Shown: piece after piece, positions 3,135 through 41,414 of the stretch
Layout of the letters: every line of letters starts with the position of its first letter
How positions within the stretch are numbered: the stretch's first letter is position 1
From: Candidatus Hydrogenedentota bacterium
GTDB taxonomy: Bacteria > Hydrogenedentota > Hydrogenedentia > Hydrogenedentales > SLHB01
Assembly: GCA_020847495.1 (NCBI GenBank)
Contig: JADLCA010000463.1
Coordinates: 1-49,796 of the forward strand
Length of the DNA stretch: 49,796 nucleotides
Direction: 5' to 3'
Notes under the pieces: model-generated
Database searches by the model: none
What the model saw: the letters and a program-made list of their open reading frames with translations, nothing else
Told to the model about the DNA's origin: nothing
Program-made: the position numbers and the translations under genes

Positions 3135-3163
3135 GGGGGCGGGGCGATCCCGCCCCCTTTTTT
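3135..3163 (+). terminator. rho-independent terminator
   Basis: GGGGGCGGGG, CGAT loop, CCCGCCCCC, followed by TTTTTT (3158-3163). Confidence 0.8.
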
Positions 3164-3185: not shown

Positions 3186-5180
3186 ATGCGCCCGGTGCTG
3201 CACCTGGACTTCGAAACCTACTCCGACCTTGATGTACGGGTGGTCGGGGCGTACCGCTACGCCGAGCACCCGAGCACAGAGATCCTGGTCGCCGGATACG
3301 CGTTGGATGACGGCCCGGTCCGCCAGTGGGAGCCGCATCTAGCCAAGCGCCCGCCTGCTGATCTACGCGCCGCCCTGGAGGACCCGGACGTATTGATACT
3401 CGCGCACAACGCCGAGTTTGAGCGGCGCATTATCGTGAATTGCATGGGGCTGGACCTGCCCCGCACCCGCTACCGCTGCACGGCCGTGCGCGCCGCAGCC
3501 GCAGGGCTACCGCGCGCGCTGGACGGAGCACTGGCAGCGTTAGGGCATGTGGTCCGGAAGGACCCTCGCGGTAAAGCCTTACTCCGCCGGTTTGCCAGTC
3601 CACGCAAGCCGACTAAGCATGATGATCGTACCCGCATCCGCCCGGCTGATGACCCTGAGAAATGGTCGCAGTTGTTGGAGTACAACAAGCAGGACGTGAT
3701 TGCTGAAAAGGCGTTGGATCAAGCCATACCGGACCTACCCCCGCGAGAATGGAGATACTACCAGTATGTCTGCAAACTGAACGACCGGGGCTTGCCGATT
3801 GATCTAGCCGCCCTGGACGGCGCGGCTCGTATGACTCGCAAGTTGGAGCAGAGCACGGTACTGGAAGTGACTCGGTTGACCGGGCACCGCCCAACTCAGG
3901 TCGCCAAGATTTTGGCGTGGCTAGGTCGCAAAGGGGTGACGATCCCTAACCTGCAACTCAAGACCATCCAGGTGGCCTTGCGCGAACAATCTATGCCACT
4001 GGAAGCTCGCACGGTGCTGCTCGCACGCGTGGAAGCGAGCAAAGCCAGCACGAAAAAGATCAAGGCGATGCAAGCGGTAGTCTGCAAGGATGGCCGTGCT
4101 CACGGCACCGTGCTTCCCTATGGCGCGCATACTGGGCGGCTGGCTGGACGGTTGATCCAACCGCACAACTTCCCGCGCGGCTTGTTGACCTCGACGGTGC
4201 AAGATCTCGTGCTGGACTTATTCACCAAGGGAGACATCGACCTCATACGCATGTTGTTGTGGCATCAGCCGGAGCCGACCCCTTCCGGACCACAACCGAT
4301 CCAAGGGCCGATGAGCATGCTGGCTCAGTCCATGCGTGGGTTCATACGGGCACCGAGCGGCTACCGCTTCGTAGTCGTGGATTATGCCGCCGTGGAGGCT
4401 CGAATCCTGGCATGGTTGGCGAACGAGGCCAAGTTGCTCATCGCATACCGCAACAAGGTTGACACCTACAAGATGATGGCGAGTGACCTGTACCAAGTTC
4501 CAATTGAGGAGGTGACCAAAGAGCAACGCCGCATCGGTAAGAACTTACGGCTCGGCGCCGGGTATCAACTTGGCCCGCCCCGACTGGTAGAACACTGCGC
4601 CAAGGAAGAGATCTTCATCACACTGGAATTCGCCACCAAGGCCATCCGTGCGTTTCGAGACACCAACCGTAACATCGTGCGCTCCTGGTACGCACTGGAA
4701 GACGCCGCCATACGCGCAATGCAGACTGGTCAACAAGTGCGCGCGTTGAAAGACCGCGACTTGTTCTTCGAGAAATGGCGGGATTGGCTGTTGATGGAAT
4801 TGCCGAGCGGGCGCAAACTGCACTATTACGCGCCTTCGGTGGAGACCGTAGTCAAGTTCGGCAAACCCAAGCTGCAACTCTCGTACTTCGGGGAACGCAA
4901 GGCGGGCATGCGTGGGCGCGTTTCGACCTACGGCGGCAAGCTAGTCGAAAATGCAGTACAGAGTATCGCGCGAGATATCATGATGGAAGGCATGCTAGCC
5001 GGAGAAGAGGCAGGCTATCCCGCGCTAGTCAACATCCACGACGAAGACCTAACGCTACGCAAGCATGATGAAGGCAATGTAAAAGAGCTAGAGCAAGTAG
5101 TCTGCAAGATGCCGCAATGGGCGGCGGGGATCCCCCTCGCCGCGGAAGGCTTTGAATGTGAACGATACAGGAAGGGTTAA
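3186..5180 (+). CDS. family-A DNA polymerase with an N-terminal 3'-5' exonuclease domain
   Basis: Exo I motif LDFETYS. Motif A DYAAVEARILAWL. Motif B RRIGKNLRLGAGYQLG. Motif C NIHDE. Confidence 0.95.
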   Translation: MRPVLHLDFETYSDLDVRVVGAYRYAEHPSTEILVAGYALDDGPVRQWEPHLAKRPPADLRAALEDPDVLILAHNAEFERRIIVNCMGLDLPRTRYRCTAVRAAAAGLPRALDGALAALGHVVRKDPRGKALLRRFASPRKPTKHDDRTRIRPADDPEKWSQLLEYNKQDVIAEKALDQAIPDLPPREWRYYQYVCKLNDRGLPIDLAALDGAARMTRKLEQSTVLEVTRLTGHRPTQVAKILAWLGRKGVTIPNLQLKTIQVALREQSMPLEARTVLLARVEASKASTKKIKAMQAVVCKDGRAHGTVLPYGAHTGRLAGRLIQPHNFPRGLLTSTVQDLVLDLFTKGDIDLIRMLLWHQPEPTPSGPQPIQGPMSMLAQSMRGFIRAPSGYRFVVVDYAAVEARILAWLANEAKLLIAYRNKVDTYKMMASDLYQVPIEEVTKEQRRIGKNLRLGAGYQLGPPRLVEHCAKEEIFITLEFATKAIRAFRDTNRNIVRSWYALEDAAIRAMQTGQQVRALKDRDLFFEKWRDWLLMELPSGRKLHYYAPSVETVVKFGKPKLQLSYFGERKAGMRGRVSTYGGKLVENAVQSIARDIMMEGMLAGEEAGYPALVNIHDEDLTLRKHDEGNVKELEQVVCKMPQWAAGIPLAAEGFECERYRKG

Positions 5181-5182
5181 CC

Positions 5183-5464
5183 ATGAACCTCACTACCAAG
5201 ATTACCAAGACCGACATCGCACGAATCATGCCGCACATGACGAACTGGATGCCGGTGCATGCCTACATCCGGCACCTTCCGGTCGACGAAAACTCGCTAC
5301 TGGAACTGCGACGCATGCTCACGATCGAACTTAACCGCGAAGAACCGCGTGCGCAAATTCTGGAACGCCTGTACGGCAAGTTCAGCGCGATGCGCAAGCA
5401 GATGGAAGAGCGAGACATCTTTGGCCGCATGCACACGACGACCGCGCAGCCCGAGACGGCTTGA
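5183..5464 (+). CDS. hypothetical protein (93 aa)
   Basis: Starts 3 nt after the polymerase stop. Its stop overlaps the next start (TGATG). Confidence 0.55.
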   Translation: MNLTTKITKTDIARIMPHMTNWMPVHAYIRHLPVDENSLLELRRMLTIELNREEPRAQILERLYGKFSAMRKQMEERDIFGRMHTTTAQPETA

Positions 5465-5766
5465 TGCGAGAACGTGCAGTCGAGCGTAAACTCTTCTTGA
5501 TGGTACGGCAACTCGGGGGTCGTGCCATCAAGTTGAGGAACACGACCTATAACGGTGATCCAGACCGCATACTGGTTCTACCAAACGGCGTGACCCTGTA
5601 TGCCGAAGTGAAGCGCCCCAAGCAACGCCCCCGAGCATCGCAACAACGCGTGCATCGCTGGTTTCGCCGCAAGGGCCACACGGTCTTGATTGTGGACGGC
5701 ACTAATTGGCATCAAGTGTTTACTTACATGCAGTCGCGTATTATAATGGCGGCACGGCGCGCGTAG
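5464..5766 (+). CDS. VRR-NUC domain nuclease
   Basis: Contains GDPDRILVLPNG...YAEVKRPKQ...Q, which fits the PD-(D/E)xK VRR-NUC pattern. Size is about 100 aa. Confidence 0.75.
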   Translation: MRERAVERKLFLMVRQLGGRAIKLRNTTYNGDPDRILVLPNGVTLYAEVKRPKQRPRASQQRVHRWFRRKGHTVLIVDGTNWHQVFTYMQSRIIMAARRA

Positions 5767-5794
5767 TGTGCGCCGAGCCACCGTGGGAGGAGCA

Positions 5795-6352
5795 GTGCAA
5801 ATCTTTGTTGTTGAAGAAAGCCCGTTGCGGGCCGCGAAAGCATTGTGCGATAAGCATGTACTCAGCCAGATTGGCGAGACCGCAGAAATGCTGGCGTTGG
5901 CTCATCTGCATAATCACGAGCCAGTACCGCCGCTGGCTCGACTCAAAGTCCGGCGAGGACACGTGAACCACCCTTGTACCCGATGGGTCGGTCTGACGCT
6001 TGGCAACTATCAATGGGCGGCGACGCTTGGGGTTGCCCTACTTGACGAGTACGCCCATCGATACAACAACGAACACGCGTACACGGTGGACATCTATCGC
6101 ATGGCCTCCAGCCCGCCGTTTCAGTTGATCGGAGCGGCTATGCCAGAGACCCCGCACCCGCTGGTCGTGCCCGAAAACTACCGCATGGCGATGCCCGCTA
6201 CGCAAGGAGCTTCCGTGGTGCTGTCGTACCGCATCTACTACCACATGAAGGCCGCTCGTATGCCCATGCGTTGGACCCGCCGGCGAAAGCCAAAATGGTT
6301 CGATTACGCCGGGGTCTCCGCGCTCCACCTGGACGCCCATGCGCACACGTAG
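5795..6352 (+). CDS. conserved phage protein of unknown function
   Basis: GGGAGGAG RBS, then GTG at 5795. Motifs are IFVVEESPLRAAKALCDKHV and NHPCTRWVG...NYQW...LLDEYAHRY. I recognise the pattern from other phages but cannot name a function. Confidence 0.55.
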   Translation: MQIFVVEESPLRAAKALCDKHVLSQIGETAEMLALAHLHNHEPVPPLARLKVRRGHVNHPCTRWVGLTLGNYQWAATLGVALLDEYAHRYNNEHAYTVDIYRMASSPPFQLIGAAMPETPHPLVVPENYRMAMPATQGASVVLSYRIYYHMKAARMPMRWTRRRKPKWFDYAGVSALHLDAHAHT

Positions 6353-7737: not shown

Positions 7738-8550
7738 ATGATGAGCTGGAAGCAATTCGCCAAAACTCTGTTTGAAATAGAAGACGCAGACCCCGGCTAC
7801 ATGCTGCTCGGCCGCGCCAAGATCTCATTGCCACAGAAACGTCGTTTCATGGCGGCATGGTGCGCGTTCTATAATCCCGGCATCGCGGCCAAGGCCAGCG
7901 AGTACGAAGGTGAGCTCTTCTGGCGCTATCTGCAGACGCAGTACGCGATCGCCAAGCGGGCCAGTGAACGTCGGCACTTCCGCGGCAAGGCGGGCCTGGA
8001 TGCACTCAAAACGTGGCAAGAGCGATTCACACTGCCAGAGACAATGGTGTCCTATATGGTCGCATCGAACTTCTTCAAGGTACAGTACCGAGCCAAGTCA
8101 GTGCCGCAGATCGGTGTGTACTTCGTCTGGAAGTTTGCGGATGTGCAGGAACGGGTCTTCCGCATCCCATGTGCATTCCCGCCAGAGGCTGCGAAGCATA
8201 GTCCTAGTGTACCGCAGCAAGGCGCGAAGCGCATTGCGCCTGACTTGACGGTCGGCGAAACTTACGCAATGATCGCAGACTACCTGAACGATCTGGGCAT
8301 GCGCTCGCCACCGTGGTACGACCGCCCGATGAACATGCAGGAGGCTGAAACGGTAGCCTGCGTCTACAAGCAATACATCAACAGTAAGTGGTGTCCACAC
8401 AGCCGCACCGCTAAGGCGACTCGCAGCTTGCTCGCTACCCCTAGCGACACCGGTGAGGTACTGCTCAAGGCGCTGCACACGCGCACCGGAGTGCGCAGGA
8501 AGGAGATGGACGCATGGCAAACCGACGTGCTGAACCAACTCGGGCACTGA
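7738..8550 (+). CDS. conserved protein of the base-modification module; possibly a second aGPT-Pplase / amino-acid:DNA-transferase-like protein
   Basis: 270 aa with an ERRHFRG motif. Its position immediately upstream of, and overlapping, the P-loop kinase drives the call. The family assignment is from memory only. Confidence 0.4.
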   Translation: MMSWKQFAKTLFEIEDADPGYMLLGRAKISLPQKRRFMAAWCAFYNPGIAAKASEYEGELFWRYLQTQYAIAKRASERRHFRGKAGLDALKTWQERFTLPETMVSYMVASNFFKVQYRAKSVPQIGVYFVWKFADVQERVFRIPCAFPPEAAKHSPSVPQQGAKRIAPDLTVGETYAMIADYLNDLGMRSPPWYDRPMNMQEAETVACVYKQYINSKWCPHSRTAKATRSLLATPSDTGEVLLKALHTRTGVRRKEMDAWQTDVLNQLGH

Positions 8551-9125
8551 TCTACGTGCATGGCACGAATGGCAGCGGTAAGAGCACATTGGCGCGCTAT
8601 CTCATCATGTGCGCCGGCGGCATCAAAGCCATCAAGCCGCACCCGCGCACCGGGGCCAAATGCACCTATACGCATGGGGTACTAGCCCTTGTGGGCAAAT
8701 ACAGCACGGCCACGGGAGGAGCGGATGGGGTGCAACCCTACGCGCTCGTCCCACAAACCGCGTTGGCGCTGCTGGCGGACGGCCACGATGTCCTGGTGGA
8801 GGGGCTAATGACCCCCGGTGTAGACACTTGCGCTGAGCTGACCCGCAAGGCCCGGAAACTCGGGGCGTCGGTGCGCTTCATACGACTGGACATCGGATTC
8901 TACCAGTCTTGCGAAAACGTCAAGCGCCGCCGCCGTCTGGTCGGTAACGTTAAGCCATTCGACCCAATCAATCTGCGCAAGAAGCAGCAGACCTGCCATA
9001 GCTGGTTCGAACGCTTGGCCGAAGCCCGCCTGCCTATCTACGGTTTTGACTGGAGGAACGCCCGTGACTACTGTCTATCCACATACGGACTCTCGACCGC
9101 TGGAGCGGTTCGCATACTGGATTAG
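8514..9125 (+). CDS. P-loop kinase, candidate 5-hydroxymethyluracil DNA kinase (5-HMUDK-like)
   Basis: Walker A YVHGTNGSGKST near the N-terminus. About 200 aa. Flanked by transferase-like genes and a TS homologue. Confidence 0.6.
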   Translation: MANRRAEPTRALIYVHGTNGSGKSTLARYLIMCAGGIKAIKPHPRTGAKCTYTHGVLALVGKYSTATGGADGVQPYALVPQTALALLADGHDVLVEGLMTPGVDTCAELTRKARKLGASVRFIRLDIGFYQSCENVKRRRRLVGNVKPFDPINLRKKQQTCHSWFERLAEARLPIYGFDWRNARDYCLSTYGLSTAGAVRILD

Positions 9126-9936
9126 CGAGCGCGATAAAATCCGGCTGCGTCGACTTAAAGGCCAGAAGCCGCCGTACACCGATGATCCGATCTTGCAGAA
9201 GTACCGCTTCTGCAATGTGCGACGAGAAGATGACCGGGTAACGCGCTGGATCGCGCATAACTGGCGCAACACTCACATCGACGAGCCTTCTGTGTGGCAT
9301 GCGATGCTGATCGCCCGGTACATCAACTGGCCCGCCACGCTGGGAGAGTGCGGCTACCCAGAGCCGTGGGCTGAACGGCGCAAAGAGTTCGCCAAGCGGT
9401 TGTCCAGATGGGATACGATGGGGCAACAGGTTTTCACCGGCGCGTACATCGTCAGCACCAACGGTGCCAAGATCGGGAAGGTCGAACACGTATTGCAACT
9501 TTTCCAGCGGGCACACATCGCACTGGAAGGCGTTATGCCAGCAGTCCGCACTTGCGACGAAGCCTATAAAGCCCTGCGCACGGTGGACGGCATCGGTAGC
9601 TTTATGGCCGCTCAAATCGTAGCGGACGTGAAGTACACAGACCTTTTAACCGAGGCGCCGGACTGGCATACTTTTGTAGCCCCCGGCCCCGGCAGCATGC
9701 GCGGACTCAACCGAGTTCTGGAGTACGATCTGCAGACCAAGTGGAACTTTGCCGAGTTCGCATCTACCATGCGCTATCTGAAGAAGACTACCGCGCGCAT
9801 GGTACGATGGGCCGAGTCACTGCATCTGCAAGATCTGCAGAACTGTTTGTGCGAGTTCGATAAATATGAGCGGGTATTGCACGGTCAAGGCAAGCCCCGC
9901 TCACAGTACCGCCCGTCCCTTGACCCCTTGCCATAG
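9064..9936 (+). CDS. aGPT-Pplase-like (alpha-glutamyl/putrescinyl-thymine pyrophosphorylase / AADT) DNA base hypermodification protein
   Basis: GGAGGAA RBS, then GTG at 9064. An alternative start lies at 9046. The motif PPYTDDPILQKYRFCNVRREDDRVTRW is what I recall for this family. Gene context supports the call. Confidence 0.55.
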   Translation: MTTVYPHTDSRPLERFAYWISERDKIRLRRLKGQKPPYTDDPILQKYRFCNVRREDDRVTRWIAHNWRNTHIDEPSVWHAMLIARYINWPATLGECGYPEPWAERRKEFAKRLSRWDTMGQQVFTGAYIVSTNGAKIGKVEHVLQLFQRAHIALEGVMPAVRTCDEAYKALRTVDGIGSFMAAQIVADVKYTDLLTEAPDWHTFVAPGPGSMRGLNRVLEYDLQTKWNFAEFASTMRYLKKTTARMVRWAESLHLQDLQNCLCEFDKYERVLHGQGKPRSQYRPSLDPLP

Positions 9937-9944
9937 GAGTACTC

Positions 9945-10931
9945 GTGCTGAACATTACCGGTCGTAACGTCAACGAGGTCTTCGCCTCGGCGCTGGTGCA
10001 TTTTCGCAATAACCCTGCTCTGCTCGAATCACGTCCGCGCGGGGAGCGTCGCCTGCAATACCAGTACCCGATCGCGAGCCACTATCTGCGCCCGCGAGAA
10101 CGGGTGCTGTTCCACTCAGTTCGGGACGCCAACCCCTTCTTCCACTTCATGGAAGCCCTGTGGATCATCGCTGGTCGTAGCGATGTGCAGTGGCTCAGCC
10201 AATGGTTGCCTTCGATCGCGGACTATAGCGATGACGGCCGCTACTTTCACGGCGCTTACGGCATGCGGTTACGTCGGGACAATCAACTCACCGACGTCAT
10301 TCGCCGTCTGACCAATGAGCCAGACACTACGCGGGCGGTGTTGCAGATCTACGACCACATGGAAGACAAGAACTATCGGGGCAAGGACATGCCCTGCAAC
10401 TGCATGGTCTTCCTCGGGCTTCAAGACAACCAACTGAATCTGACGGTGGCCAACCGCAGCAACGACATGATCTGGGGGGCGTACGGAGCCAACGTTGTTC
10501 AGTTCAGCATGTTGCAGGAGTACATCGCCAGCGTAATCGATGTGGATGTAGGCTGGTATGTGCAGTTCAGCAACAACGCGCACATCTACCCAGACAAAGA
10601 GGCTACTCAGCGGGTACTCAACCACACTGCCCACGTACTGGACACTGATCTGTACGCAGAAGACATAGTCCAGCCGTACCCGCTGATGAAGGACGTAGGG
10701 TTCAACGAGTGGCATCGCGACCTGGACTACTTCCTGCGCGACTCGCCTGGACCGTACAAGACACCGTTCTTCGCGACGGTAGCCTTGCCCATGCAGGCCG
10801 CGCACCAACTCTACCGTAAACGCGAACTCAACGCCGCGATCGATGCGTGCAACATGATCGAAGCTACCGATTGGCGGATTGCCTGCCGCCACTGGTTGAT
10901 GCGCCGCTTGACCCCGAAGGCGTCGGTATGA
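9945..10931 (+). CDS. thymidylate-synthase superfamily enzyme, candidate dUMP hydroxymethylase
   Basis: FFHFMEALWIIAGRSD, AYGMRLR, catalytic-Cys region GKDMPCNCMVF, ANRSNDMIWGAYGANVVQF, NNAHIY. It is divergent from canonical ThyA. Confidence 0.7.
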   Translation: MLNITGRNVNEVFASALVHFRNNPALLESRPRGERRLQYQYPIASHYLRPRERVLFHSVRDANPFFHFMEALWIIAGRSDVQWLSQWLPSIADYSDDGRYFHGAYGMRLRRDNQLTDVIRRLTNEPDTTRAVLQIYDHMEDKNYRGKDMPCNCMVFLGLQDNQLNLTVANRSNDMIWGAYGANVVQFSMLQEYIASVIDVDVGWYVQFSNNAHIYPDKEATQRVLNHTAHVLDTDLYAEDIVQPYPLMKDVGFNEWHRDLDYFLRDSPGPYKTPFFATVALPMQAAHQLYRKRELNAAIDACNMIEATDWRIACRHWLMRRLTPKASV

Positions 10932-11464
10932 AAACCGATGCGCTCGGCGTTGTACTGGCCAGCGGAAACGTGCTGCGTTGTCATACCATGCCCTGTCTGC
11001 ACCGCCAGACGATCGGGCAGCATACGTGGCGAGCGATGATCATCCTGCACTGGCTGTTCCACCCGGCCTACCCGCCACCGCAAGTCTCGTATGCCATGTT
11101 GATGCACGATGTACCTGAGATCCACACCGGCGATGTACCGGGCGGTATCAAAGCAGACCACGCGGGCTTGTCCGTCGCTCTGGATGAACTAGAACAAGAC
11201 TTTCTACAATCCATGGGCATCCCGGTGCCGATGTTGCCCCCATTAGAAGAGAGGCTAGTCAAGGTGTGCGACCGTGCCGATCTGACCCTTTACACCCTGG
11301 ACGAGTACGAAATGGGTAACGTGCATATGGAGACAATCGCACGGCGAGCGTACCAGATGACTACTCGTCTGATCAACGACAGCGCCGAGTTACGCATCCA
11401 TTGGCCGCGCGTCGTAGACTTGGCGGCTGCACTTGATCACCGCATAGGGGTGCTTCGTGGCTAA
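10928..11464 (+). CDS. HD-domain phosphohydrolase (YfbR-like 5'-deoxynucleotidase)
   Basis: ATGA overlap with the upstream gene. Contains QHTW...MLMHDVPEIHTGDVPGGIK (H...HD...D metal ligands). Confidence 0.75.
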   Translation: MKTDALGVVLASGNVLRCHTMPCLHRQTIGQHTWRAMIILHWLFHPAYPPPQVSYAMLMHDVPEIHTGDVPGGIKADHAGLSVALDELEQDFLQSMGIPVPMLPPLEERLVKVCDRADLTLYTLDEYEMGNVHMETIARRAYQMTTRLINDSAELRIHWPRVVDLAAALDHRIGVLRG

Positions 11465-11633
11465 ACTCGTGATTTTGACCGTAGAACTAGACGAAGCCAA
11501 GGCCGTGCGCGCGTTCTTGGAACGTCAACCGTTGCCTCGTGAAATTACCGGCGAGGTCAAGCGTATCTTGGCATTCAACGCCAAGCTGTTCAAAGCCATC
11601 CAACACAGCGAAGGAGTCAAGCGTCGTGTCTAA
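11457..11633 (+). CDS. hypothetical protein (58 aa)
   Basis: The GTG at 11457 overlaps the upstream stop. Product is VAKLVILTVELDEAKAVRAF.... It fills an otherwise empty gap and is below the ORF-track cut-off. Confidence 0.35.
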   Translation: MAKLVILTVELDEAKAVRAFLERQPLPREITGEVKRILAFNAKLFKAIQHSEGVKRRV

Positions 11634-12147
11634 CGCCAATGCTACCCAAGTCGGCGGGTCTCACTACAAGGCTCATGGTGACAGCGACCTGCAACACTGG
11701 GACATCGTCCACAAGTTCAAGCTGGACTACTTCCAGGGGCAAATCACTCGGTACGTCTTCCGCTGGCGGGACAAGAACGGTTTGGAGGACTTGCACAAAG
11801 CTGCGCATTTCCTCCAGAAATACATCGAGCTGAATACACCGTCGCAAGAAGACATTCAGGCGCAACTCGAACTCTTGCCCCGCCTTCTGGGCGACTCGGA
11901 CCCGGTCAAGACGTACCATGTCGGCGAAGTTCTGGCGACCGGTTGGGCGCAATTTCTGTTCGAGGGCACTGACGCATACGGCACGCTATACACCTGTCGC
12001 ACCTGTAAGCAGAAGTTTCTCGCGCCGCCCGACCAAAACCCGCACGACTATCACGGTTGCCATGACATCCCCAATCAATGCTACCGGGGCATGGCGGCTG
12101 CTGCGCCAGAAGGGGATGCGACTCCGGCGTACGTAAAGCAGGAATGA
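11626..12147 (+). CDS. DUF3310 family protein
   Basis: AAGGAG RBS at 11611, then GTG at 11626. Contains GGSHYK...HWDIV...YFQGQITRYVFRWRDKNGLEDLHKAAHFLQKYIE. Confidence 0.7.
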   Translation: MSNANATQVGGSHYKAHGDSDLQHWDIVHKFKLDYFQGQITRYVFRWRDKNGLEDLHKAAHFLQKYIELNTPSQEDIQAQLELLPRLLGDSDPVKTYHVGEVLATGWAQFLFEGTDAYGTLYTCRTCKQKFLAPPDQNPHDYHGCHDIPNQCYRGMAAAAPEGDATPAYVKQE

Positions 12148-34162: not shown

Positions 34163-34496
34163 CGTTGACCCCACTCTTGGCCATGATCTCGACTTCGCGT
34201 TGCTCCAGGTACAAATGGGCGACGCTAACAAAGTTAAAGATCGAACCTTGGTGCTCGCCGCGGTGAGCGGTCGTGATCTGGCTGGTAATGTCGTTCCAAC
34301 GTACCTTGATACGCGTATCCATTTCGCCAGCAATCTGGTCGCCCAACAAGCGTTCCCGGCCGCGCATCGGTTCGATGGATGCCCACACGGCGCCGATGGT
34401 CGTCCAGGTGGGCACCAGTTCGCCGGTCGTCCCATCCTGCGCCATGACTGGCGCTTGGATGTTCAGACGATGCCGCTTGGCGCCGATCTGCATCAC
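34155..34496 (-). CDS. head-tail adaptor / head closure protein (SPP1 gp16 / HK97 gp9-like)
   Basis: RHRLNIQAPV...DGTTGELVPTW...VWASIEPMRGRE pattern. Confidence 0.7.
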   Translation of the reverse strand: MMQIGAKRHRLNIQAPVMAQDGTTGELVPTWTTIGAVWASIEPMRGRERLLGDQIAGEMDTRIKVRWNDITSQITTAHRGEHQGSIFNFVSVAHLYLEQREVEIMAKSGVNDG

Positions 34497-35209
34497 GCCA
34501 TCCCGCGTCGGAAGCGCTCCGGGTACAGCAACGCTTTGACGCCCATCTCGATTTCTCGAGGAAGTTGGCTCAGCGTCTCGGTGTTGGATCTGTTCTCGTA
34601 GAAGTGAGTGAGCAACAGCAAGATCGCGGCCGTGTACGTGGCGGGCATGCCGAGTTCAAACGGACTGGCTCCGTCCGCATCGTAACCTGCATTGAATCGA
34701 ATACGAACAGCATTGGGGCGGTCATAAGTCGCGGGCCAACCGGAACCAGGAGCCGGGAACAACCGCCCTTCGTCGGTGTATGGATCGAACGCGTACCCGG
34801 TCGGGCTACCACTCAAGTCAACATCTAGGTTATTGGCATCGGCATAGATCACCGAATTGATCGAGCGGGCGGGGCCGATTGGGAACCGGATGTAATCGTA
34901 TTGCGAAGAGTACAGCGCAACCGGATAGTCAGAGTACCCCCGCACTGGGAAGCAGCGCAAAGTGAGTTCGTATTCTTGGTATGCGAGCGCTCGCCCCGAG
35001 AGCACTTCGCAATGCTGTCTTGCGGCCGGCAGGTAGACCGATTGAATCAGATTGTCATCCGGGTGGGACAACGGACTGCCATAGAGGTCAAGCCGCAGAT
35101 GATTGCGGGCAGTCTCCAGCGTGATCGGTTCCGCCGCAGAACCGAGCGGGCGCGCGCTATGCCGTAGCAGTGCTTCTCTGTACCACGAAGGCGTCGAATA
35201 TGTAGGCAT
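34493..35209 (-). CDS. gp6-like head-tail connector (QLRG family) protein
   Basis: ITLETARNHLRLD opening motif. Position is at the head of the connector genes. Confidence 0.65.
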   Translation of the reverse strand: MPTYSTPSWYREALLRHSARPLGSAAEPITLETARNHLRLDLYGSPLSHPDDNLIQSVYLPAARQHCEVLSGRALAYQEYELTLRCFPVRGYSDYPVALYSSQYDYIRFPIGPARSINSVIYADANNLDVDLSGSPTGYAFDPYTDEGRLFPAPGSGWPATYDRPNAVRIRFNAGYDADGASPFELGMPATYTAAILLLLTHFYENRSNTETLSQLPREIEMGVKALLYPERFRRGMA

Positions 35210-35275: not shown

Positions 35276-35959
35276 TTACTGGGCGTACTGCTCACATGCT
35301 CGATACCACAGATCAGCATGTTCGCAATCAGGCAACAACTCCGGAGTGCCGAGCGTATAGTGAGCAATCGCCGGGTTGGCCGGTTTCGGCTGCATGCCGA
35401 CCAGCCAGTTCCAATCCATCGGGAGTTCGCCAATCTCGTCATCATGCAGCCAGCCGAAAGCGTGCAGGTCGCGCCCCGGCCAACTGTTCAACGTGGTGAT
35501 GTTGAGTCGCCGATTGGCCGGATGATCAACGTTCCACAGAGTCACTGCTGACCAGAGTTTGCGAGGGTAGGCTGTCTGCACCTGCCCGTCCATCTTCTTG
35601 CCACCTACGTTGCCGACATCGTGCTTGACCACTTGCACCGCGTAACGCGAATCAGCCAACTGCATGAGTTCTTGGGCATCTCGCAAGAATACCATATCGC
35701 AGTCGGTGAAGAGTGCCCATCCAGTATGTGCGAGCAACGGCGTAAAGAATCGTGCAACCGCGAACGAGGTAGCTTGCGGCGCGTTGCTGACTAAGTCCCA
35801 CATCTGGCCGCGTCGATCTAACGGACGAGTCAGCAGCCCACTCGTACGTAGTGCATGCTCGTACAATGGCAACGGGGCAAAGCCATGAGCTCGCGCGGTC
35901 CCCATCGCGACGTCGAAGCTGCGTTGCTCCCTGTCTTCGTGCCCGATGTAAACCCGCAT
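35276..35959 (-). CDS. GT-A fold glycosyltransferase (GT8-like)
   Basis: N-terminal VYIGHEDREQRSFDV. DxD motif LFTDCDMVFL. It resembles the small phage-type nucleotide-sugar transferases. Confidence 0.65.
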   Translation of the reverse strand: MRVYIGHEDREQRSFDVAMGTARAHGFAPLPLYEHALRTSGLLTRPLDRRGQMWDLVSNAPQATSFAVARFFTPLLAHTGWALFTDCDMVFLRDAQELMQLADSRYAVQVVKHDVGNVGGKKMDGQVQTAYPRKLWSAVTLWNVDHPANRRLNITTLNSWPGRDLHAFGWLHDDEIGELPMDWNWLVGMQPKPANPAIAHYTLGTPELLPDCEHADLWYRACEQYAQ

Positions 35960-35960
35960 G

Positions 35961-36161
35961 TCAGTCCACCACGTAAATGTAGGGAAAATTGTCTTTGCCG
36001 CCTACCCGACGACAACAGGCGCCGCGTGCATGCACCGCGCCCGTCTTGCCGTACCACCGAGCTTCTCGAGCCTTGATCTGGCCTTTGCACACGACGCACC
36101 GCGCTTCACCGGGGCCACCATGCAGCACCGTCGCTTCCAGCTTGTCTTTCAGTGGATCCAT
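35961..36161 (-). CDS. small Cys-containing protein (66 aa)
   Basis: The ATG at 36161 lies 2 nt after the radical-SAM stop. Its stop lies 1 nt before the GT start. Contains CVVC...ACC. Confidence 0.4.
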   Translation of the reverse strand: MDPLKDKLEATVLHGGPGEARCVVCKGQIKAREARWYGKTGAVHARGACCRRVGGKDNFPYIYVVD

Positions 36162-36163
36162 GG

Positions 36164-37114
36164 CTAACTGTAAGCCACGCATTCTTCGCACGGCGTGCCG
36201 CTCACGTCTTTCCGCAGATGTGCCTCACGCAGCGCCGCGAACTCAAGGCTGTGCCACGCTTCCATGAACGTTTGTTGATTGAGATCACCCATGCGCCACC
36301 GGCCGTCTGCATCGAAGCAGCACGCGGAAAGATAGCCGTCTGCCGTAACGTGCCCTTCGGTAAAGGCGCTCCAGCACGGCAGCGGTTCACGCAACGCGCC
36401 GAGCCGTCCTTGATTGCCGGCAGTCGGCTTATAACCGAGTTCGGCTTCACGTTGCGTAGCGAGCGACCCCATGCTGTAAAGCGGCAACCAGTAGTGTTCG
36501 TCCACGTAGGGGCGCACCCGCTCGCTGAGCAGTGCTTCCATCGCGACCTGCTGCGCGCCGTCGTACTTGATGCTGCTGGCGTAAATACCACACTTGAACT
36601 TGCCGGCCGCACGGACTTCGCGTGCTCGCTTGATGGCGTCCAGTGCGTCCTCATACAACCGCGCCTTGACCCCCATCACATCAACGAATTGCTCCGGGGT
36701 TGCGGCGTTGACGCTGAACTTGAGCGAGTCCAGCCCTGCTGCCATGACTGCTGCCAGCCGGTCCCACGTACACAGGCTCCCATTCGTCGTCAAGAATACG
36801 TATGGGAACCCAATCTTCTTGCACCACGAGATCGCGCGCACCAGCAGGTCCGGCGCCATGAACGATTCGCCGAGGTAGAACACGCCGATCTCCTCGACCC
36901 CGGCATCGCGCATCTGCTGCGTCATGCGCATAAACAGATCGAAGTCCATGTCGCCGGTCGGCTGCTCCTTGCGCGTGCGCAAGGCGCAGAACCCGCAACG
37001 GTAATTGCACCGGCCGGTCAGTTCGATCTTCACCGACTTGGGCGCAGGCGGACGCGCGGAATAACGGTCTGCTGTCACCAGTGTGATTGCATCGATGCGT
37101 TGCGTAATGGTCAT
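36164..37114 (-). CDS. radical SAM enzyme with a SPASM/twitch-like Cys-rich C-terminus
   Basis: Cluster motif CNYRCGFC. GGE-like motif YLGESF. C-terminal cysteines CWSAF...ACCFD...PCEEC. The start at 37114 overlaps the upstream stop. Confidence 0.9.
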   Translation of the reverse strand: MTITQRIDAITLVTADRYSARPPAPKSVKIELTGRCNYRCGFCALRTRKEQPTGDMDFDLFMRMTQQMRDAGVEEIGVFYLGESFMAPDLLVRAISWCKKIGFPYVFLTTNGSLCTWDRLAAVMAAGLDSLKFSVNAATPEQFVDVMGVKARLYEDALDAIKRAREVRAAGKFKCGIYASSIKYDGAQQVAMEALLSERVRPYVDEHYWLPLYSMGSLATQREAELGYKPTAGNQGRLGALREPLPCWSAFTEGHVTADGYLSACCFDADGRWRMGDLNQQTFMEAWHSLEFAALREAHLRKDVSGTPCEECVAYS

Positions 37115-37332
37115 GAGGTTAGCCGTCCGTCCAGTAGCAGGGAAAACGCACATCCGAGTTCTTGGCATGCCGAAAGCAGTTCGGCTCGAACACATGCACC
37201 GCCCCGTCCACGCCGTACGCGCGCGACTCGTACGCCGGAATCGTCTGCCCACACTCGATCGATGCAACGCACAGCCTTCGGGCCAGCGTACAACTTGCGC
37301 AGTTGCTCGGCGATAACGGGGTCCGCGATCAT
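37111..37332 (-). CDS. small ORF (73 aa) bridging the methyltransferase and radical SAM genes; frame uncertain
   Basis: ATGA overlaps at both ends. Codon bias looks coding only in the first half. A different frame looks coding in the second half (see findings). Confidence 0.3.
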   Translation of the reverse strand: MIADPVIAEQLRKLYAGPKAVRCIDRVWADDSGVRVARVRRGRGGACVRAELLSACQELGCAFSLLLDGRLTS

Positions 37333-37988
37333 CTCGGCACCATCACGTAGTCACCGCTCATCTTCTCCACGCAGCGGTAGCCGAACTCCTTCGTCAGCCA
37401 CTCCACCGCACCGAGTTCCGGCAAGCCGAACTGCTGCCCGCGCCCCGGTTTCTGCTCCACGCAGATCACCGGCAGGTCGCGATTGATGATACGCGCCGCG
37501 CCCTTCAACGCAAACAGTTCATACCCCTCGCAGTCCAGCTTAATGAAGTCCACGTCTTGCACCTGCCCGAACGTATCAAGCATACACAGCGGGATGTCGC
37601 CCGCGCCGCCCACGCGGGAGTCACCGGAAGAAGTCGGCGCAGTCACGATGGACACGCGCCCTTCGTGATCACCGAGCGCGCAGGCGTGGAGCGTCAGGTC
37701 GTGACCGGCGCTCATGCCGGCGAGGTTCGCCTGCCAGCACTCGCGGTGCGCGGCGACAGGCTCGAACGCATGGACACAGCGAAACCGCTTGAGCAGTTGC
37801 ATCGTCCATAGCCCGACGTGCGCGCCCACGTCGACCGCGGTGCGGAAGTCCTTGACGTGTGCCAGCGCGGCGCGCAGTTTCTTGATCTGGTAAGTGCCAC
37901 GCCCGTCGACCATTTCGCCATTCTTGGTCATCCACTCGGTCAGATGTGTTTCGCCGTCGGGAAGCCAGATGCCTTGATGCTTAATCAC
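37329..37988 (-). CDS. FkbM-family SAM-dependent methyltransferase
   Basis: GGAGGA RBS, then GTG at 37988, which overlaps the upstream TGA. Motifs are VDVGAHVG, VHAFEP and VDFIKLDCEGYE. Confidence 0.85.
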   Translation of the reverse strand: MIKHQGIWLPDGETHLTEWMTKNGEMVDGRGTYQIKKLRAALAHVKDFRTAVDVGAHVGLWTMQLLKRFRCVHAFEPVAAHRECWQANLAGMSAGHDLTLHACALGDHEGRVSIVTAPTSSGDSRVGGAGDIPLCMLDTFGQVQDVDFIKLDCEGYELFALKGAARIINRDLPVICVEQKPGRGQQFGLPELGAVEWLTKEFGYRCVEKMSGDYVMVPR

Positions 37989-38743
37989 TTGTTCAATTCC
38001 TCCATGATTGCCGAGCGAACTTCTTCTATAGTGATTGCATCCATAGACGCCTTGCACGAAGCGCACGGCATCCGTGATCCGCACACTGCTGTGGTCTTAC
38101 GGATATTGCGTTGGCTTGCGTATCCGGTGTACGCAGGGGCGATGAACTCGGACCAGAGCACGATAGCCCGCGTGCCGAGCGCCGCTGCGGCATGGTGCAG
38201 CGCCCCTTCCGCGCCAACAAAAAGACGCGCACTGGCGAGCACGCCGAATGCTTGGCGCACCGTGGTCGGGACAAAGCGCACGCCTTGCAAACGACGCGTA
38301 TCCGGAACGCCGATCTGCACCCAATGCACGTCCAGCGAGCACACGAGTTCCTGCCAGCGCTCGAACGGCCACGCCTTGTTACCGTCCAGCGCTTTGGTGT
38401 TCGGCTCGATCACGACCGCACCCGCACTGATCACAGCGCCTTGCGCGTGCTCCTCGTGTGTGAGATATAGCTCTCCCGGCTGGATGTTCCATGTTTGCCA
38501 AAACCAGCGCTTATCGGTCTTGGATCGAATATATGGACGCGACCCACCCGCATTGACTAACCGCACCAAGTTTACCATCTCACGTGGGGTGACTTCATGC
38601 GGCTTCGCGATGCGCGGGTTGTTGTCGAACGCGTCGGACCAACGCAGCCGCCCCATGCGGTCGATAACGGCCACCTTCTTCCCGGTGCGCTCATTCAGTT
38701 CCCGCACCTGCGCCGTCGCCATGATCCAGTCACCGAGGCCCAT
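37985..38743 (-). CDS. GT9-family (heptosyltransferase-like) glycosyltransferase
   Basis: GGAGGA RBS, then ATG at 38743 (TAATG overlap). N-terminal GLGDWIMAT. C-terminal LFVGAEGALHHAAAALGTRAIVLW. Confidence 0.7.
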   Translation of the reverse strand: MGLGDWIMATAQVRELNERTGKKVAVIDRMGRLRWSDAFDNNPRIAKPHEVTPREMVNLVRLVNAGGSRPYIRSKTDKRWFWQTWNIQPGELYLTHEEHAQGAVISAGAVVIEPNTKALDGNKAWPFERWQELVCSLDVHWVQIGVPDTRRLQGVRFVPTTVRQAFGVLASARLFVGAEGALHHAAAALGTRAIVLWSEFIAPAYTGYASQRNIRKTTAVCGSRMPCASCKASMDAITIEEVRSAIMEELNK

Positions 38744-39264
38744 TACAGCGTTTCCTCCAACGACAGCATCCCGCGATAGGAGCACTTCGCCGCGTACACG
38801 CCGAACAGCGTTTGCCACCATTCGATCGGGCGGACGGTAACGTGCAGGTTCGTGATGCCGTCTGGAAAAAATTTCTTGGCAGGGCGACAGCAGATCGACG
38901 CCCAGAGGAACAAGCGACTGTGCGTCATCATGTAGATGATCGCATCCTCCAGTTCGTGCTCCGGGATGTGCTCCATTACGTCAGAGCAGACAATGCCGTC
39001 GAACTCCTCGTTCGGGCGCGTGGCCAACGCTGGGATCGCGGGATCGTACAGACGCGGCTTCGGCACCTTCCACCGCTGGTGCAGGAAGTAGGGCGCGTCG
39101 TACGCGACGCCAGCACCGGAACCGTAATCGAGCAATGTCACCGCGCCGCTGCGCTTGATCATACCTTGCACGCTGCGCGCGTGGATCAGCAACGACAGCC
39201 CACGAAAGTTCTCGCCTTCCGCCGTCATCTGCCGATACGCGTTGACCAACTTACCCTCGGGCAT
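38743..39264 (-). CDS. class I SAM-dependent methyltransferase
   Basis: Motif I LLDYGSGAG. DGIVCSDVMEHI. The start is at 39264, with an alternative at 39285. Confidence 0.8.
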   Translation of the reverse strand: MPEGKLVNAYRQMTAEGENFRGLSLLIHARSVQGMIKRSGAVTLLDYGSGAGVAYDAPYFLHQRWKVPKPRLYDPAIPALATRPNEEFDGIVCSDVMEHIPEHELEDAIIYMMTHSRLFLWASICCRPAKKFFPDGITNLHVTVRPIEWWQTLFGVYAAKCSYRGMLSLEETL

Positions 39265-39808
39265 AGTATCCGATCCACTCGTCATAGGTTCCGTGCACTA
39301 CGTCGACTAATGACAGCCCAGCATCACGCATCGCCACGCCGATGTCGTGAGGCACATAGCCGGACCGCTCGTCCCGGATCACTTCACCCGATGCCGGGAG
39401 TCGCACCACGCACAGGCTTTTGGTGACTGCGCCGAAGCGATGTGCGGCTGCGCTCGGGTCCTTGAGCTTGTGCAGGATCGCAAGCAACAGCACGACATCA
39501 AAGCCACCGTACGGCGTGCAATCAGTCGGGTCCCACACATTCGCATCGGCATGGAATAAAGCCAGCGGCAACCGCTCTTGATCACGCAACGTTCGTGCGA
39601 CATCCAGATGCGCAGCCACCCGCTCGACCCCGACCGCTTCGCGTGCGCCCGCGCGCAAGAACTCCATGGCGATCAAACCTTCAGCACACCCAACATCGAG
39701 TACGACGCCACCTTTGGCAGCGACAACAGCAGATTCGAGTCCCACCATCTGCTGCTCCAGTGTGCGGTCGCCCCCGCGCCCCGGCGTGCTGAACCAACCT
39801 TTGCTCAT
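39251..39808 (-). CDS. class I SAM-dependent methyltransferase
   Basis: Motif I VLDVGCAEG. FDVVLLLAILHKL. The ATG at 39808 overlaps the upstream stop. Confidence 0.8.
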   Translation of the reverse strand: MSKGWFSTPGRGGDRTLEQQMVGLESAVVAAKGGVVLDVGCAEGLIAMEFLRAGAREAVGVERVAAHLDVARTLRDQERLPLALFHADANVWDPTDCTPYGGFDVVLLLAILHKLKDPSAAAHRFGAVTKSLCVVRLPASGEVIRDERSGYVPHDIGVAMRDAGLSLVDVVHGTYDEWIGYYARG

Positions 39809-40614
39809 GCCGACTGCTCCTGCTGCTGTTGCAAGTCCGCCCAGCATTGGCCGTAACGCATTTCGTCTAGTGTCCATTGGTTGTCGGCGAGTACATGGAA
39901 CAACTGCTCTCGCGCAGGGTCGGGGGCCAGATGCGGTTCTTCCAAATCATCGAACAACGACGCGCAAGGCGATGCTGCGCAAAGCTGACTACAGAACACC
40001 GGGATACCGTGATGCAGCGCCGTGATCGCCGCAGCCGATGAGTGCGTGATCAAGGCGTGCGCGTCGAGCAAGTCCTGCTCCAGTGTTGCGGCAAGTGCAC
40101 CCTTATCCGGAGACCAATCGCGCAAACAAACCGGAAGCGATGTAACACGGTTCAGCCGTCGGATCGTATCGCGACACCAATCACCAGGGTACTTCACGAT
40201 GTTACGCATGAAGTGATCCGACTGCGGGCAAACGACAATGTGCTCCCCCTGCGCGCGCCACGGCCGAATCGGCGACAGGTTCAGCGTGCGGTAACGTGCA
40301 CCATTTGAAGTTCGATCACGGCGCACGTATTGCAGACCGTTGCTGGTCACACGGAAGTAGTGCTGCCTGGTCGCGTCAAAGTAACTGTTGTCGCAGTAAT
40401 AGAACGGGGCGCCTCCGTGCGCGGCTCGCTTCACGGCCGCATCATACAGGTGCTGGTTCGAGGCGTCGACACCGTAGAAAAACGCGGGAACGCCCGGCGT
40501 CAACCCAGCCAAACCCGCCCCCTTCTGCATGACGACCCCGCCGCAACCCTCGACGAACGCACGGCAAATCTCCAGCGACTTCGCCTTGCCGGCCACCGGA
40601 TAAGCGATCACCAT
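39805..40614 (-). CDS. putative GT-B-like glycosyltransferase, paralogue A
   Basis: GGGAGA RBS, then ATG at 40614. Contains HIVVCPQS..., LEQDLLDAHALITHSSAAAITALHHGIPVF and QWTLDEM. It shares these blocks with the upstream gene. Confidence 0.45.
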   Translation of the reverse strand: MVIAYPVAGKAKSLEICRAFVEGCGGVVMQKGAGLAGLTPGVPAFFYGVDASNQHLYDAAVKRAAHGGAPFYYCDNSYFDATRQHYFRVTSNGLQYVRRDRTSNGARYRTLNLSPIRPWRAQGEHIVVCPQSDHFMRNIVKYPGDWCRDTIRRLNRVTSLPVCLRDWSPDKGALAATLEQDLLDAHALITHSSAAAITALHHGIPVFCSQLCAASPCASLFDDLEEPHLAPDPAREQLFHVLADNQWTLDEMRYGQCWADLQQQQEQSA

Positions 40615-41414
40615 TGGATTCTCCCCGCGCGGGCAGCATCGCGGAACAGCACGAACGGCTCGCCGCTCGCGAGTTCGTCCACGGTCCACTGCGCCCACGC
40701 CATGTCCTCCAATGCCTGCTGTCGCGCGCCGTCGTTGCGGAGCACGGACTGCTCACCGTCGCGCCCCGGCTTCAACCGCGTGGCGGCATGTTCGCAAATC
40801 CAATGCGGCGCGTCGTACACGACCGGAATGCCGCGCAGCAACGCCTTGACCCCGGACGTGGACGACCACACTACACACAATTTCGCATTCGTAAGGTCTT
40901 GCTCCAGCGTCGGTGCTTTAGGGTCGGGCTTGTTGCCGGGGTGCACACGCACGCGGGCCGGTTGCGGACTGCGCTTGGCCGCACCTACGTGCCAGTTGGG
41001 AGGAGACGCCATGCTACGGGAGCCAATCCCTCTCTGCCCGCACACCAGCGCGTGCCCGTCCGGCCGGGACACCCACGGCGCGGGCGTCAGCCCAAGCGCG
41101 GCAAAGCGTTCCGGTCCGCCGCGCGGCCACCATCCGCTGCCATTGTGTCCGTGCGCCGCAAGGGCGTAACGCTGCCGCCCTTGATCATCGCCGCCAATGT
41201 AACCGTTCTCAGCAACGAGAACCGTGCCTCCGTGCGCTTCCCACGCATCGGCCATCTGCTCATTGGCACCATAGCGGTTCCAGATCACGAGAAGATCGTC
41301 CGACTTGCGCGCACCGCCGCGATCTGTGACGGCGTAACCCGCACGTTGCAACCCGGTGACAAAGGCATCACGTCGGTAGTGCGGTTGGTCGCGAATCAGG
41401 CAGATGGCGGTCAT
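40608..41414 (-). CDS. putative GT-B-like glycosyltransferase, paralogue B
   Basis: Contains HALVCGQRG..., LEQDLTNAKLCVVWSSTSGVKALLRGIPVV and QWTVDEL. ATGA overlap with the upstream gene. Confidence 0.45.
   Translation of the reverse strand: MTAICLIRDQPHYRRDAFVTGLQRAGYAVTDRGGARKSDDLLVIWNRYGANEQMADAWEAHGGTVLVAENGYIGGDDQGRQRYALAAHGHNGSGWWPRGGPERFAALGLTPAPWVSRPDGHALVCGQRGIGSRSMASPPNWHVGAAKRSPQPARVRVHPGNKPDPKAPTLEQDLTNAKLCVVWSSTSGVKALLRGIPVVYDAPHWICEHAATRLKPGRDGEQSVLRNDGARQQALEDMAWAQWTVDELASGEPFVLFRDAARAGRIQW

Follow-up and report, generated by a model that had tools for sequence, protein, structure and literature searches.

The DNA analyzed here, referred to as the window, is a phage-like sequence of 49,796 nucleotides (~49.8 kb, 60.7% G+C) found as contig JADLCA010000463.1 in a Candidatus Hydrogenedentota assembly. 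Its segment 7738-11464 very probably encodes a minimal thymidine hypermodification module of the 5-hydroxymethyl-deoxyuridine (5-hydroxymethyl-dU or 5-hmdU) type. A preliminary description, made from the nucleotide sequence without database searches, had proposed a thymidine hypermodification toolkit in this region, and evidence of four kinds (profile, profile-profile, structural and synteny), collected with Pfam, hhalign, BLASTP, Foldseek and comparisons of gene order, supported its central reading, with three details to be corrected. The active-site residues of the hydroxymethylase, the kinase and the transferase are present and intact, and the operon is conserved. Modules of this type are already known (Lee et al. 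2018, 2021); what is new is this member and not the kind of system.

The preliminary description had drawn five contiguous, overlapping genes, and each of them corresponds to an open reading frame (ORF) on the + strand. The five genes are as follows.

7738..8550, + strand: amino-acid:DNA transferase (AADT) gene, 270 aa; PF18724, formerly aGPT-Pplase2
8514..9125, + strand: P-loop 5-hmdU DNA kinase gene (5-HMUDK-like), 203 aa; Walker A motif GTNGSGKST
9064..9936, + strand: PF18723 gene, formerly aGPT-Pplase1, 290 aa, all-alpha; the Pfam name is '5-hmdU DNA kinase, helical domain'
9945..10931, + strand: thymidylate synthase (TS)-fold pyrimidine hydroxymethylase gene, 328 aa; predicted dUMP hydroxymethylase
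10928..11464, + strand: HD-domain phosphohydrolase gene, 178 aa; motif MHDVPEIHTGD

These contiguous genes carry ribosome-binding sites and have abutting or overlapping ends. The AADT gene starts at ATG 7738, 1 nt past the stop codon of an SNF2 helicase gene, with AAGGAG upstream. The kinase gene starts at ATG 8514 (GGAGA upstream) and overlaps the AADT gene by 37 nt, while the PF18723 gene, starting at GTG 9064 (GGAGG upstream), shares 62 nt with the end of the kinase gene; the N-terminus read from this GTG, MTTVYPH, agrees with those of its homologues. After a gap of 8 nt, the TS-like gene starts at GTG 9945 (AGGAG upstream), and the ATG at 10928 of the HD gene lies in an ATGA overlap with the TS-like stop codon. 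From their sequence, the five-gene junctions read as a translationally coupled block.

The product of 7738-8550 matched PF18724 with 67.7 bits (cut-off 26.2), and its sequence matches among solved structures included 25qc (1.3e-20) and 8z2m, the PaMx11 glycinyltransferase (2.3e-18). Its AF2 model (pLDDT 96.1) was compared by Foldseek with 8z2n, the crystal structure of PaMx11 gp46/PUGT, giving TM scores of 0.80/0.75 and an E-value of 4e-12; a second tier of weak fold matches consisted of helix-hairpin-helix (HhH) glycosylases. BLASTP showed 28-30% identity to the M6 and PaMx11 AADTs (E 2.6e-25 and 7e-25, respectively), and identity to every characterized AADT is 25-30%. All proven transferases, M6 gp51, PaMx11 gp46, ViI gp247 and PhiW-14 gp109, belong to clade 2 (PMC8989533). 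According to the names in the JGI database, PF18724 is the former 'aGPT-Pplase clade 2' and PF18723 the former 'clade 1'. Therefore, the label 'aGPT-Pplase-like' used in the preliminary description was right in the older nomenclature, but the roles were inverted: it had taken 9064-9936 as the main transferase, and the bona fide AADT is the 7738-8550 protein. Of the two, only the 7738-8550 protein is of the proven transferase type.

The residues that select the donor were analyzed in an alignment of the window AADT with those of YuA, M6, PaMx11, PhiW-14, 15599 and ViI and with 120 metagenomic homologues (the AADT query had returned 215 homologues). The catalytic Cys208 and the metal ligands Glu204/Thr205, equivalent to YuA Cys247 and Glu243/Thr244, are retained, and this Cys, Glu and Thr are invariant in 123 clade members. 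The YuA pocket residues D24, E96 and K159 are also conserved in the window AADT (E77 = E96, K132 = K159). Published mutagenesis switched the donor preference between the glycine enzymes, with K248/Y257, and the 15599 enzyme, with G227/D238 (PMC13458397). At these donor-switching positions, YuA 248/257, the window AADT has V209/W218. Two further positions that line the donor pocket, YuA D262 and E265 (PMC13458397, PMC11472151), show reversals of charge, to R223 and K226. The same pattern runs through the clade (n=123), where 248 is V/I, 257 is Y (100), W (22) or H (1), 262 is R and 265 is K; column 251 is Q in every clade pattern listed. Judging from these alignments, the window AADT belongs to an uncharacterized clade of 123 aligned sequences, in which the nearest relatives of cultured type are gp14 of Rhodoferax phage P26218 (41% identity) and the protein of MW202557 (39%).

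The donor pocket formed by V209, W218, R223 and K226 fits neither the glycine nor the diamine type. Glycine enzymes (M6 gp51, YuA gp10, PaMx11 gp46) are recognized by Lys248 and Tyr257, which bind the carboxylate, and by Asp262, which buttresses them (PMC13458397), and the window protein has Val209, Trp218 and Arg223 in their place. Diamine enzymes have Gly227 and an acidic pocket made of Asp238/Asp243 in 15599 numbering (PMC13458397); the window protein has Val at the Gly227 column and Arg at the Asp243 column (YuA 262), and Trp in the YuA 257 column, which is Asp or His in the diamine enzymes. ViI gp247, of the serine type, aligned too poorly to trust its pocket columns, and no statement is made on that type. 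Since the pocket is more basic and retains the Glu that binds the amine and one Lys that binds the carboxylate, an alpha-amino acid is favored over a polyamine, and the donor would probably be larger or more acidic than glycine. We tentatively propose, at somewhat less than even confidence, that the clade AADT represents a new donor class, V248/Q251/[YW]257/R262/K265, making an undescribed adduct that is not tailored further, together with a PF18723 protein that is catalytic on hmU-DNA. Such an adduct could, for example, be a non-glycine amino acid linked through N-alpha, perhaps an acidic one held by the two new basic residues.

The same pathway could also end in a known base, with glycine, serine, putrescine or 1,3-diaminopropane as the donor and N-alpha-GlyT, O-SerT, putT or dapT as the product. 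Half of the published glycine-binding set (YuA D24, E96, K159) is conserved in the window. A kinase and an AADT without tailoring enzymes is exactly the arrangement of PhiW-14 and SH-Ab 15599, and AADTs are reported to accept several donors in vitro (PMC13458397). However, the donor-switch positions are K/Y or G/D in the known enzymes, and they are V/I plus Y/W in all but 1 of the 123 clade sequences. The charge reversals at D262 (to R) and E265 (to K) hold throughout the clade, a cationic pocket disfavors diamines, which need D238/D243, and the low identity to any characterized AADT points the same way. A known base is thus rather unlikely, and the prospect that this transferase clade, with its conserved donor pocket, makes a previously undescribed base stands at roughly a little under one half.

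By Pfam the kinase is the weakest link of the module, and for this reason a profile of its family was built and compared with two biochemically validated kinases. hhalign aligned it with PaMx11 gp49 with 99.5% probability (E 4e-22, 177 columns) and with M6 gp54 with 98.9% probability (E 2e-17). In BLASTP the window kinase was 28% identical to PaMx11 gp49 over 175 aa (E 4e-11), and it shares 41% identity with the P26218 kinase and 45% with that of MW202557. Homologues at 38-49% identity to the window kinase carry PF18748. A sequence search against solved structures gave nothing meaningful for the kinase, only cytoglobin-type noise. The preliminary description had assigned to this gene a P-loop kinase that pyrophosphorylates 5-hmdU in DNA; the assignment as a P-loop 5-hmdU DNA kinase stands, but the product of such kinases is the monophosphate 5-PmdU and not a pyrophosphate (PMC8989533, PMC11472151).

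The TS-like protein matched PF00303 (E 6e-19) and phrog_5131 (E 9e-99) and was 40% identical to M6 gp58 (E 4e-77) and 38% to PaMx11 gp51 in BLASTP. Its best match in the PDB was the CMP hydroxymethylase MilA (1e-23), with ThyA at 3e-9 or weaker. All seven NCBIfam ThyA equivalogs scored far under their cut-offs, for example 78.5 against 174.6 and 53.1 against 327. Active-site residues were compared with those of E. coli TS, in an alignment that agrees with the PDB 1kzj alignment. Glu58, Tyr94, Cys146, Arg166, Ser167, Asp169, Asn177, His207 and Tyr209 are kept, while Trp80 is replaced by Ile, Trp83 by Tyr and His147 by Asn, and M6 gp58 and PaMx11 gp51 share these changes. The Trp80/Trp83 shield that serves hydride transfer in ThyA proper is thus lost, and, judged from TS enzymology, the loss of the shield would fit capture of water by the exocyclic methylene instead of hydride transfer. 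Mutant forms of TS and T4 dCMP hydroxymethylase have shown that Asn177 selects uracil and that Asp specifies cytosine. At this position the window has the Asn of 'GAYGAN', whereas MilA has the Asp of 'GAV-SD', and the dCMP/CMP hydroxymethylases (T4 gp42, MilA) are defined by that Asp. Since Asn177 is kept, cytosine is not the substrate. From its sequence, the 9945-10931 protein is not an ordinary ThyA and is predicted to be a hydroxymethylase of the uracil type, acting on dUMP.

These data bear on a reading in which the TS homologue is an ordinary ThyA or a dCMP hydroxymethylase, its neighbors are unrelated and there is no hypermodification. The Pfam family matched is the plain 'Thymidylat_synt', and the kinase is under the PF18748 cut-off. 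Nonetheless, the ThyA equivalog scores of 21-78 bits face cut-offs of 108-427, the E-value of MilA is 14 orders of magnitude better than that of any ThyA, the base-specifying position is Asn and not Asp, Trp80 is lost, and the neighbors are confidently matched to validated kinase and transferase proteins. This reading is therefore effectively refuted, and the view of the preliminary description that the TS homologue is not an ordinary ThyA was borne out.

The HD hydrolase that had been recognized in the preliminary description matched PF12917 (YfbR-like) with 39.1 bits against a cut-off of 25.9. Among solved structures it is closest to DatZ, with which phage S-2L hydrolyzes dATP as a triphosphohydrolase (2e-5), and it also matched phrog_7076, 'dATP triphosphohydrolase' (E 6.9e-9). 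In BLASTP it was 31% identical to PaMx11 gp52 (E 3e-15) and 33% to P26218 gp17. By analogy, the HD protein is predicted to deplete dTTP or dTMP and/or dUTP, and it could be either a monophosphatase or a triphosphohydrolase. In phage 15599 a dTTPase/dUTPase is built on a different fold (PMC13458397). The HD gene is followed by a 58-aa ORF and a DUF3310 gene (11457-12147, + strand), an arrangement also seen in the syntenic relatives described below.

11539..12147, + strand: DUF3310-domain protein gene; candidate accessory only, possible nucleotide kinase

The DUF3310 protein scored 21.6 bits on PF11753, under the cut-off of 24, and its true start is probably downstream of 11539; PHROG families labeled 'nucleotide kinase' match the DUF3310 region only. 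A DUF3310 gene after the HD gene was also found in P26218, MW202557 and M6-like phages; corresponding stretches are 8125-8613 in L002 and, in the syntenic relative L010, 11723-12446. The protein could be a 5-hmdUMP kinase, and its membership in the module is tentative.

The protein encoded by 9064-9936 belongs to PF18723 (166.3 bits against a cut-off of 25, E 1.3e-48, Pfam match obtained with ORF 9046-9936) and is 32% identical to M6 gp55 (BLASTP, E 5e-41). A total of 3279 homologues were found, compared with 215 when the AADT was the query. All the residues that are invariant in the family, R23, D41, R54, D57, C263, E264, D266 and K267, are present, and the invariant C-terminal motif QNCLCEFDKY includes an invariant Cys. 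Its AF2 model has a pLDDT of 94.1, and a search of the PDB with this model gave no significant fold match, the best being weak hits to HhH glycosylases of the OGG/AGOG group (E 0.45, TM 0.40-0.51). The sequence search against solved structures returned cytoglobin-type noise only. A relationship with the AADT as paralogues was not detected: hhalign between the two families was not significant (E 0.38, 18 columns) and Foldseek did not retrieve PaMx11 gp46 with the PF18723 model. The non-significant hhalign match picks out the two Cys-bearing helices.

It is possible that the PF18723 protein has an independent catalytic role. As an additional catalyst with 5-PmdU or 5-hmdU DNA as its substrate, it might be a further group transferase, so that the modification would be mixed, or it might convert some of the 5-PmdU back to thymine. 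The C-terminal motif of the protein, QDLQNCLCEFDKY, which contains the invariant Cys263, is aligned with the catalytic helix of the AADT, QEAETVACVYKQY; there are further invariant residues, an Arg, an Asp and a GPGxxRG loop; and its weak fold matches, as with the AADT, are all HhH DNA glycosylases. A fusion of the PF18723 domain with the kinase occurs in SP10, for which no protein of clade 2 was found (Table 3, PMC5889632). The family is far larger than the AADT clade, and a pelagiphage survey reports that PF18723 occurs paired with TS genes of the M6 type (PMC9599517). On the other hand, neither the profile comparison nor the structural search linked it significantly to the AADT, a reconstitution with lysates formed N-alpha-GlyT in vitro without need of the orthologous M6 gp55 (PMC8989533), and P26218 and MW202557 have the rest of the module without a PF18723 gene. 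We consider a second catalyst improbable on this balance.

The kinase and PF18723 genes were also considered as one gene split by a frameshift. This was rejected because the two are separate in all relatives, and in the relative L012 an HNH endonuclease gene (9445-9813) stands between them. The latter is missing from the near-identical L013 and looks like a recent homing-endonuclease insertion.

The order of the five genes recurs in five metagenomic relatives, L010-L014, whose AADTs are 61-81% identical to that of the window. There the order is SSB, PolA, Pyr_excise-like, SNF2, AADT, kinase, PF18723, TS, HD, 58-aa ORF, DUF3310 and DUF932. Since the same five genes occur in the same order in these relatives and, with inserted tailoring genes, in M6 and PaMx11, the arrangement is not due to chance. 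Genes for pyridoxal phosphate (PLP), FAD, radical S-adenosylmethionine (radical-SAM) or acetyltransferase enzymes were absent near the module in L010-L014. A tailoring gene was not found beside the module in P26218 or MW202557, nor seen in L015, where the context is looser, or in the fragment L016. Pfam and PHROG scans of the window's other early ORFs, including those flanking the module, detected no PLP, flavin (FAD) or acetyltransferase genes, as the preliminary description had stated for the genes next to it. As there is no PLP, flavin, radical-SAM or acetyl-transfer enzyme with the module, the final base is probably the direct adduct of the donor. The preliminary description had held that this base cannot be predicted, and we concur, the AADT pocket being outside the glycine and diamine types.

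Among the ORFs scanned, the only radical-SAM and methyltransferase genes are those of the late island to which the preliminary description had confined them. This island (35276-43449, - strand) lies inside the head-morphogenesis genes, between portal/capsid and a head-tail adaptor (34493-35209), and contains the following genes.

42238-43449, - strand: collagen-repeat and CBM5/12 (CBM5_12) protein
41411-42370, - strand: sialyltransferase-like/MptE-like protein (phrog_4603, E 1e-37)
39805-40698, - strand: putative glycosyltransferase
39251-39877 and 38743-39285, - strand: two class-I methyltransferases
37985-38821, - strand: GT9-like protein
37329-38084, - strand: FkbM methyltransferase
36164-37267, - strand: radical-SAM/SPASM enzyme

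If the radical-SAM, methyltransferase and glycosyltransferase genes of this island (36164-42370, - strand) tailored the thymidine adduct, the module would not be minimal. In M6, a radical-SAM enzyme does act on glycinyl-thymine (PMC8989533), and the island holds the only radical-SAM and methyltransferase genes among the ORFs scanned. However, it is on the opposite strand within a head-morphogenesis block that has the collagen-repeat/CBM protein at one end and the head-tail adaptor at the other, it carries in addition the sialyltransferase-like and GT9-like genes, and late expression suits protein glycosylation better than DNA tailoring. The late radical-SAM enzyme was rejected as an analogue of M6 gp53, since it is of the SPASM type, has no BLASTP similarity to that protein and lies in a context of glycosylation and head genes. 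Tailoring by the late island is therefore very unlikely; it looks like a virion-protein glycosylation cassette and not like DNA modification, and its radical-SAM and methyltransferase genes are probably unrelated to the module.

Several points weigh against the assignment of 7738-11464 as a thymidine hypermodification module. Profile searches had been proposed in the preliminary description as a check, and in them PF18724, PF18723 and PF12917 were above their cut-offs and the kinase was below, with 21 bits on PF18748, its best Pfam family, against a gathering cut-off of 27. As a control, the validated kinase PaMx11 gp49 scored only 18.1 bits on the same profile, so that the Pfam cut-off is an unfair membership test for this kinase branch. 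The HD protein scored 20.9 with the NCBIfam 5'-deoxynucleotidase equivalog, which has a cut-off of 122. A dCMP deaminase or a dUTPase to feed the pathway was not detected by Pfam/PHROG in the other early ORFs, and the scheme leaves the role of the PF18723 protein unexplained. The proposed donor type is read from sequences that are ~30% identical, aligned to the residues of crystal structures. Finally, the support consists of sequence, structure prediction and synteny, from which the DNA chemistry and the enzyme activities are deduced.

In the published systems, 5-hmdUTP is incorporated during replication, the kinase produces 5-PmdU, and the AADT Cys adds to C6, the phosphate leaves, the donor is attached at the methylene and the Cys is released; kinase and AADT are enough to make N-alpha-GlyT, the modifications share 5-PmdU as intermediate, and the mechanism of the AADT, a Michael addition by the Cys, and its metal dependence have been described (PMC8989533, PMC11472151, PMC13458397). 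A corresponding pathway can be proposed for the window. Before replication, the TS-fold enzyme, as its fold, Cys and Asn suggest, would convert dUMP to 5-hmdUMP, and the HD hydrolase, by analogy with DatZ and the dTTPases of other hmU phages, would clear dTTP or dTMP and/or dUTP. Host kinases, or possibly the DUF3310 protein, would raise 5-hmdUMP to the triphosphate, and the phage PolA would put 5-hmdUTP into DNA instead of T. Once the DNA has been replicated, the P-loop kinase would phosphorylate the 5-hydroxymethyl group in DNA to give 5-PmdU. The AADT would then flip the base out, Cys208 would attack C6, the phosphate would be eliminated with the aid of the metal held by Glu204/Thr205, and a small-molecule nucleophile would add to the exocyclic methylene as the Cys departs. 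The final base would be the direct donor adduct with no further tailoring, and the PF18723 protein would act as a conserved partner of the pathway. As a net result, the phage DNA would become partly resistant to host restriction, an anti-restriction role suggested by analogy with related phages and bases (PMC6449724, PMC13458397).

The module lies downstream of replication and nuclease genes.

3186..5180, + strand: family-A DNA polymerase (PolA) gene, a context gene; PF00476, E 3e-20
5461-5766, + strand: VRR-NUC-like endonuclease gene; phrog_93, E 7e-19
5768-6352, + strand: Pyr_excise-family gene; PF03013, 26.5 bits; phrog_624, E 3.5e-36

The PolA is 46% identical to the P26218 polymerase. Just before its gene, a strong terminator-like hairpin (3135-3157, + strand), with a 10-bp stem that includes 9 G-C pairs and is followed by a T-run, delimits the upstream end of the transcription unit for replication and modification. 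After it, only weak stems of 5-6 pairs were found until ~12.1 kb; in the absence of a comparably strong terminator between 3157 and that point, the module is probably co-transcribed with the replication genes. The VRR-NUC-like and Pyr_excise-family genes are directly upstream of the SNF2 helicase gene and the modification module, and the syntenic relatives likewise have a Pyr_excise-like ORF ahead of their SNF2 helicase gene. The position of a glycosylase-family protein near genes for base modification may merit attention.

With regard to the window as a whole, a comparison with 50,697 phage records gave no close DNA relative, only short matches in the TS gene. Neither tRNA genes nor a terminal repeat were found in the ~49.8-kb sequence, and a scan of genome contigs in search of the host gave two distant matches only, to metagenome-assembled genomes. 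Near-twins of the AADT and PF18723 proteins, 98-99% identical, are present in the ENA clusters P0001 and P0121, the longest contig of which is 4706 bp in each case; this contig is probably one and the same in both. This level of identity indicated that a near-identical phage had been sampled before, as a fragment only. Elsewhere in the window, a 648-aa ORF (45376-47322, - strand) matches head-maturation protease families at residues ~3-267 and major head families over its full length (phrog_617, E 3.7e-141), suggesting a protease-capsid fusion.

Hypermodified thymidines protect phage DNA against restriction enzymes, and the pathways that make them are a source of enzymes for site-selective DNA labeling. 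Only a handful of AADT donors have been assigned so far, namely glycine, serine, putrescine and 1,3-diaminopropane, and a 2026 sequence-similarity network study found most AADT clusters uncharacterized. The window places a complete, compact and tailoring-free module in one such clade, with a concrete residue signature, and Rhodoferax phage P26218 is a cultured relative in which the base could be read directly. The interest that remains is in the donor pocket of the transferase clade and in the PF18723 partner; as PF18723 has thousands of homologues, the question of its role reaches wider than this window.

Among the known systems, the M6/YuA module consists of gp51 (AADT), gp52 (PLP decarboxylase), gp53 (radical-SAM isomerase), gp54 (5-HMUDK), gp55 (PF18723), gp58 (TS) and gp59 (HD) and produces 5-(2-aminoethyl)-dU. 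The window resembles it in gene order, in the five families, in the Cys and metal ligands of the AADT and in the signature residues of the hydroxymethylase, but it has no PLP or radical-SAM tailoring genes, its AADT is ~30% identical, and K248, Y257 and D262 are V, W and R. The PaMx11 module, gp46 (PUGT/AADT), gp47 (FAD), gp48 (acetyltransferase), gp49 (kinase), gp50 (PF18723), gp51 (TS) and gp52 (HD), leads to 5-acetylaminomethyl-dU. Here the likeness extends to the order, the AADT fold (TM 0.80), the kinase family (99.5%) and the HD protein (31% identity), whereas the flavin lyase and the acetyltransferase have no counterpart in the window and D175, K248, D262 and E265 are replaced by V, V, R and K. 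DatZ keeps adenine out of the phage S-2L genome, and it is, like the HD protein of the window, a small phage HD enzyme encoded beside a synthesis gene for the replacement base; the similarity is low, and the pathway of the window replaces thymine and not adenine.

Delftia phage PhiW-14 and Acinetobacter phage SH-Ab 15599, which make alpha-putrescinylthymine and alpha-diaminopropanylthymine, respectively, have the same post-replicative route, a kinase and a transferase whose direct adduct is final (PMC13458397). Unlike the compact module of the window, their genes are dispersed in genomes of 143-157 kb, and their transferases, 25-26% identical to the window AADT, have the Gly227/acidic diamine signature where the window has V209 and a basic pocket. 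P26218 and the metagenomic podovirus MW202557 have smaller genomes (36-38 kb), lack the PF18723 gene and carry Y/V/Y in the YuA 157/254/257 columns instead of the V/N/W of the window, and a literature search found no reports of DNA modification or DNA chemistry for either. Nevertheless, they share with the window the synteny of PolA, endonuclease, SNF2 helicase, AADT, kinase, TS, HD and DUF3310 genes as well as the clade signature V248, Q251, R262 and K265.

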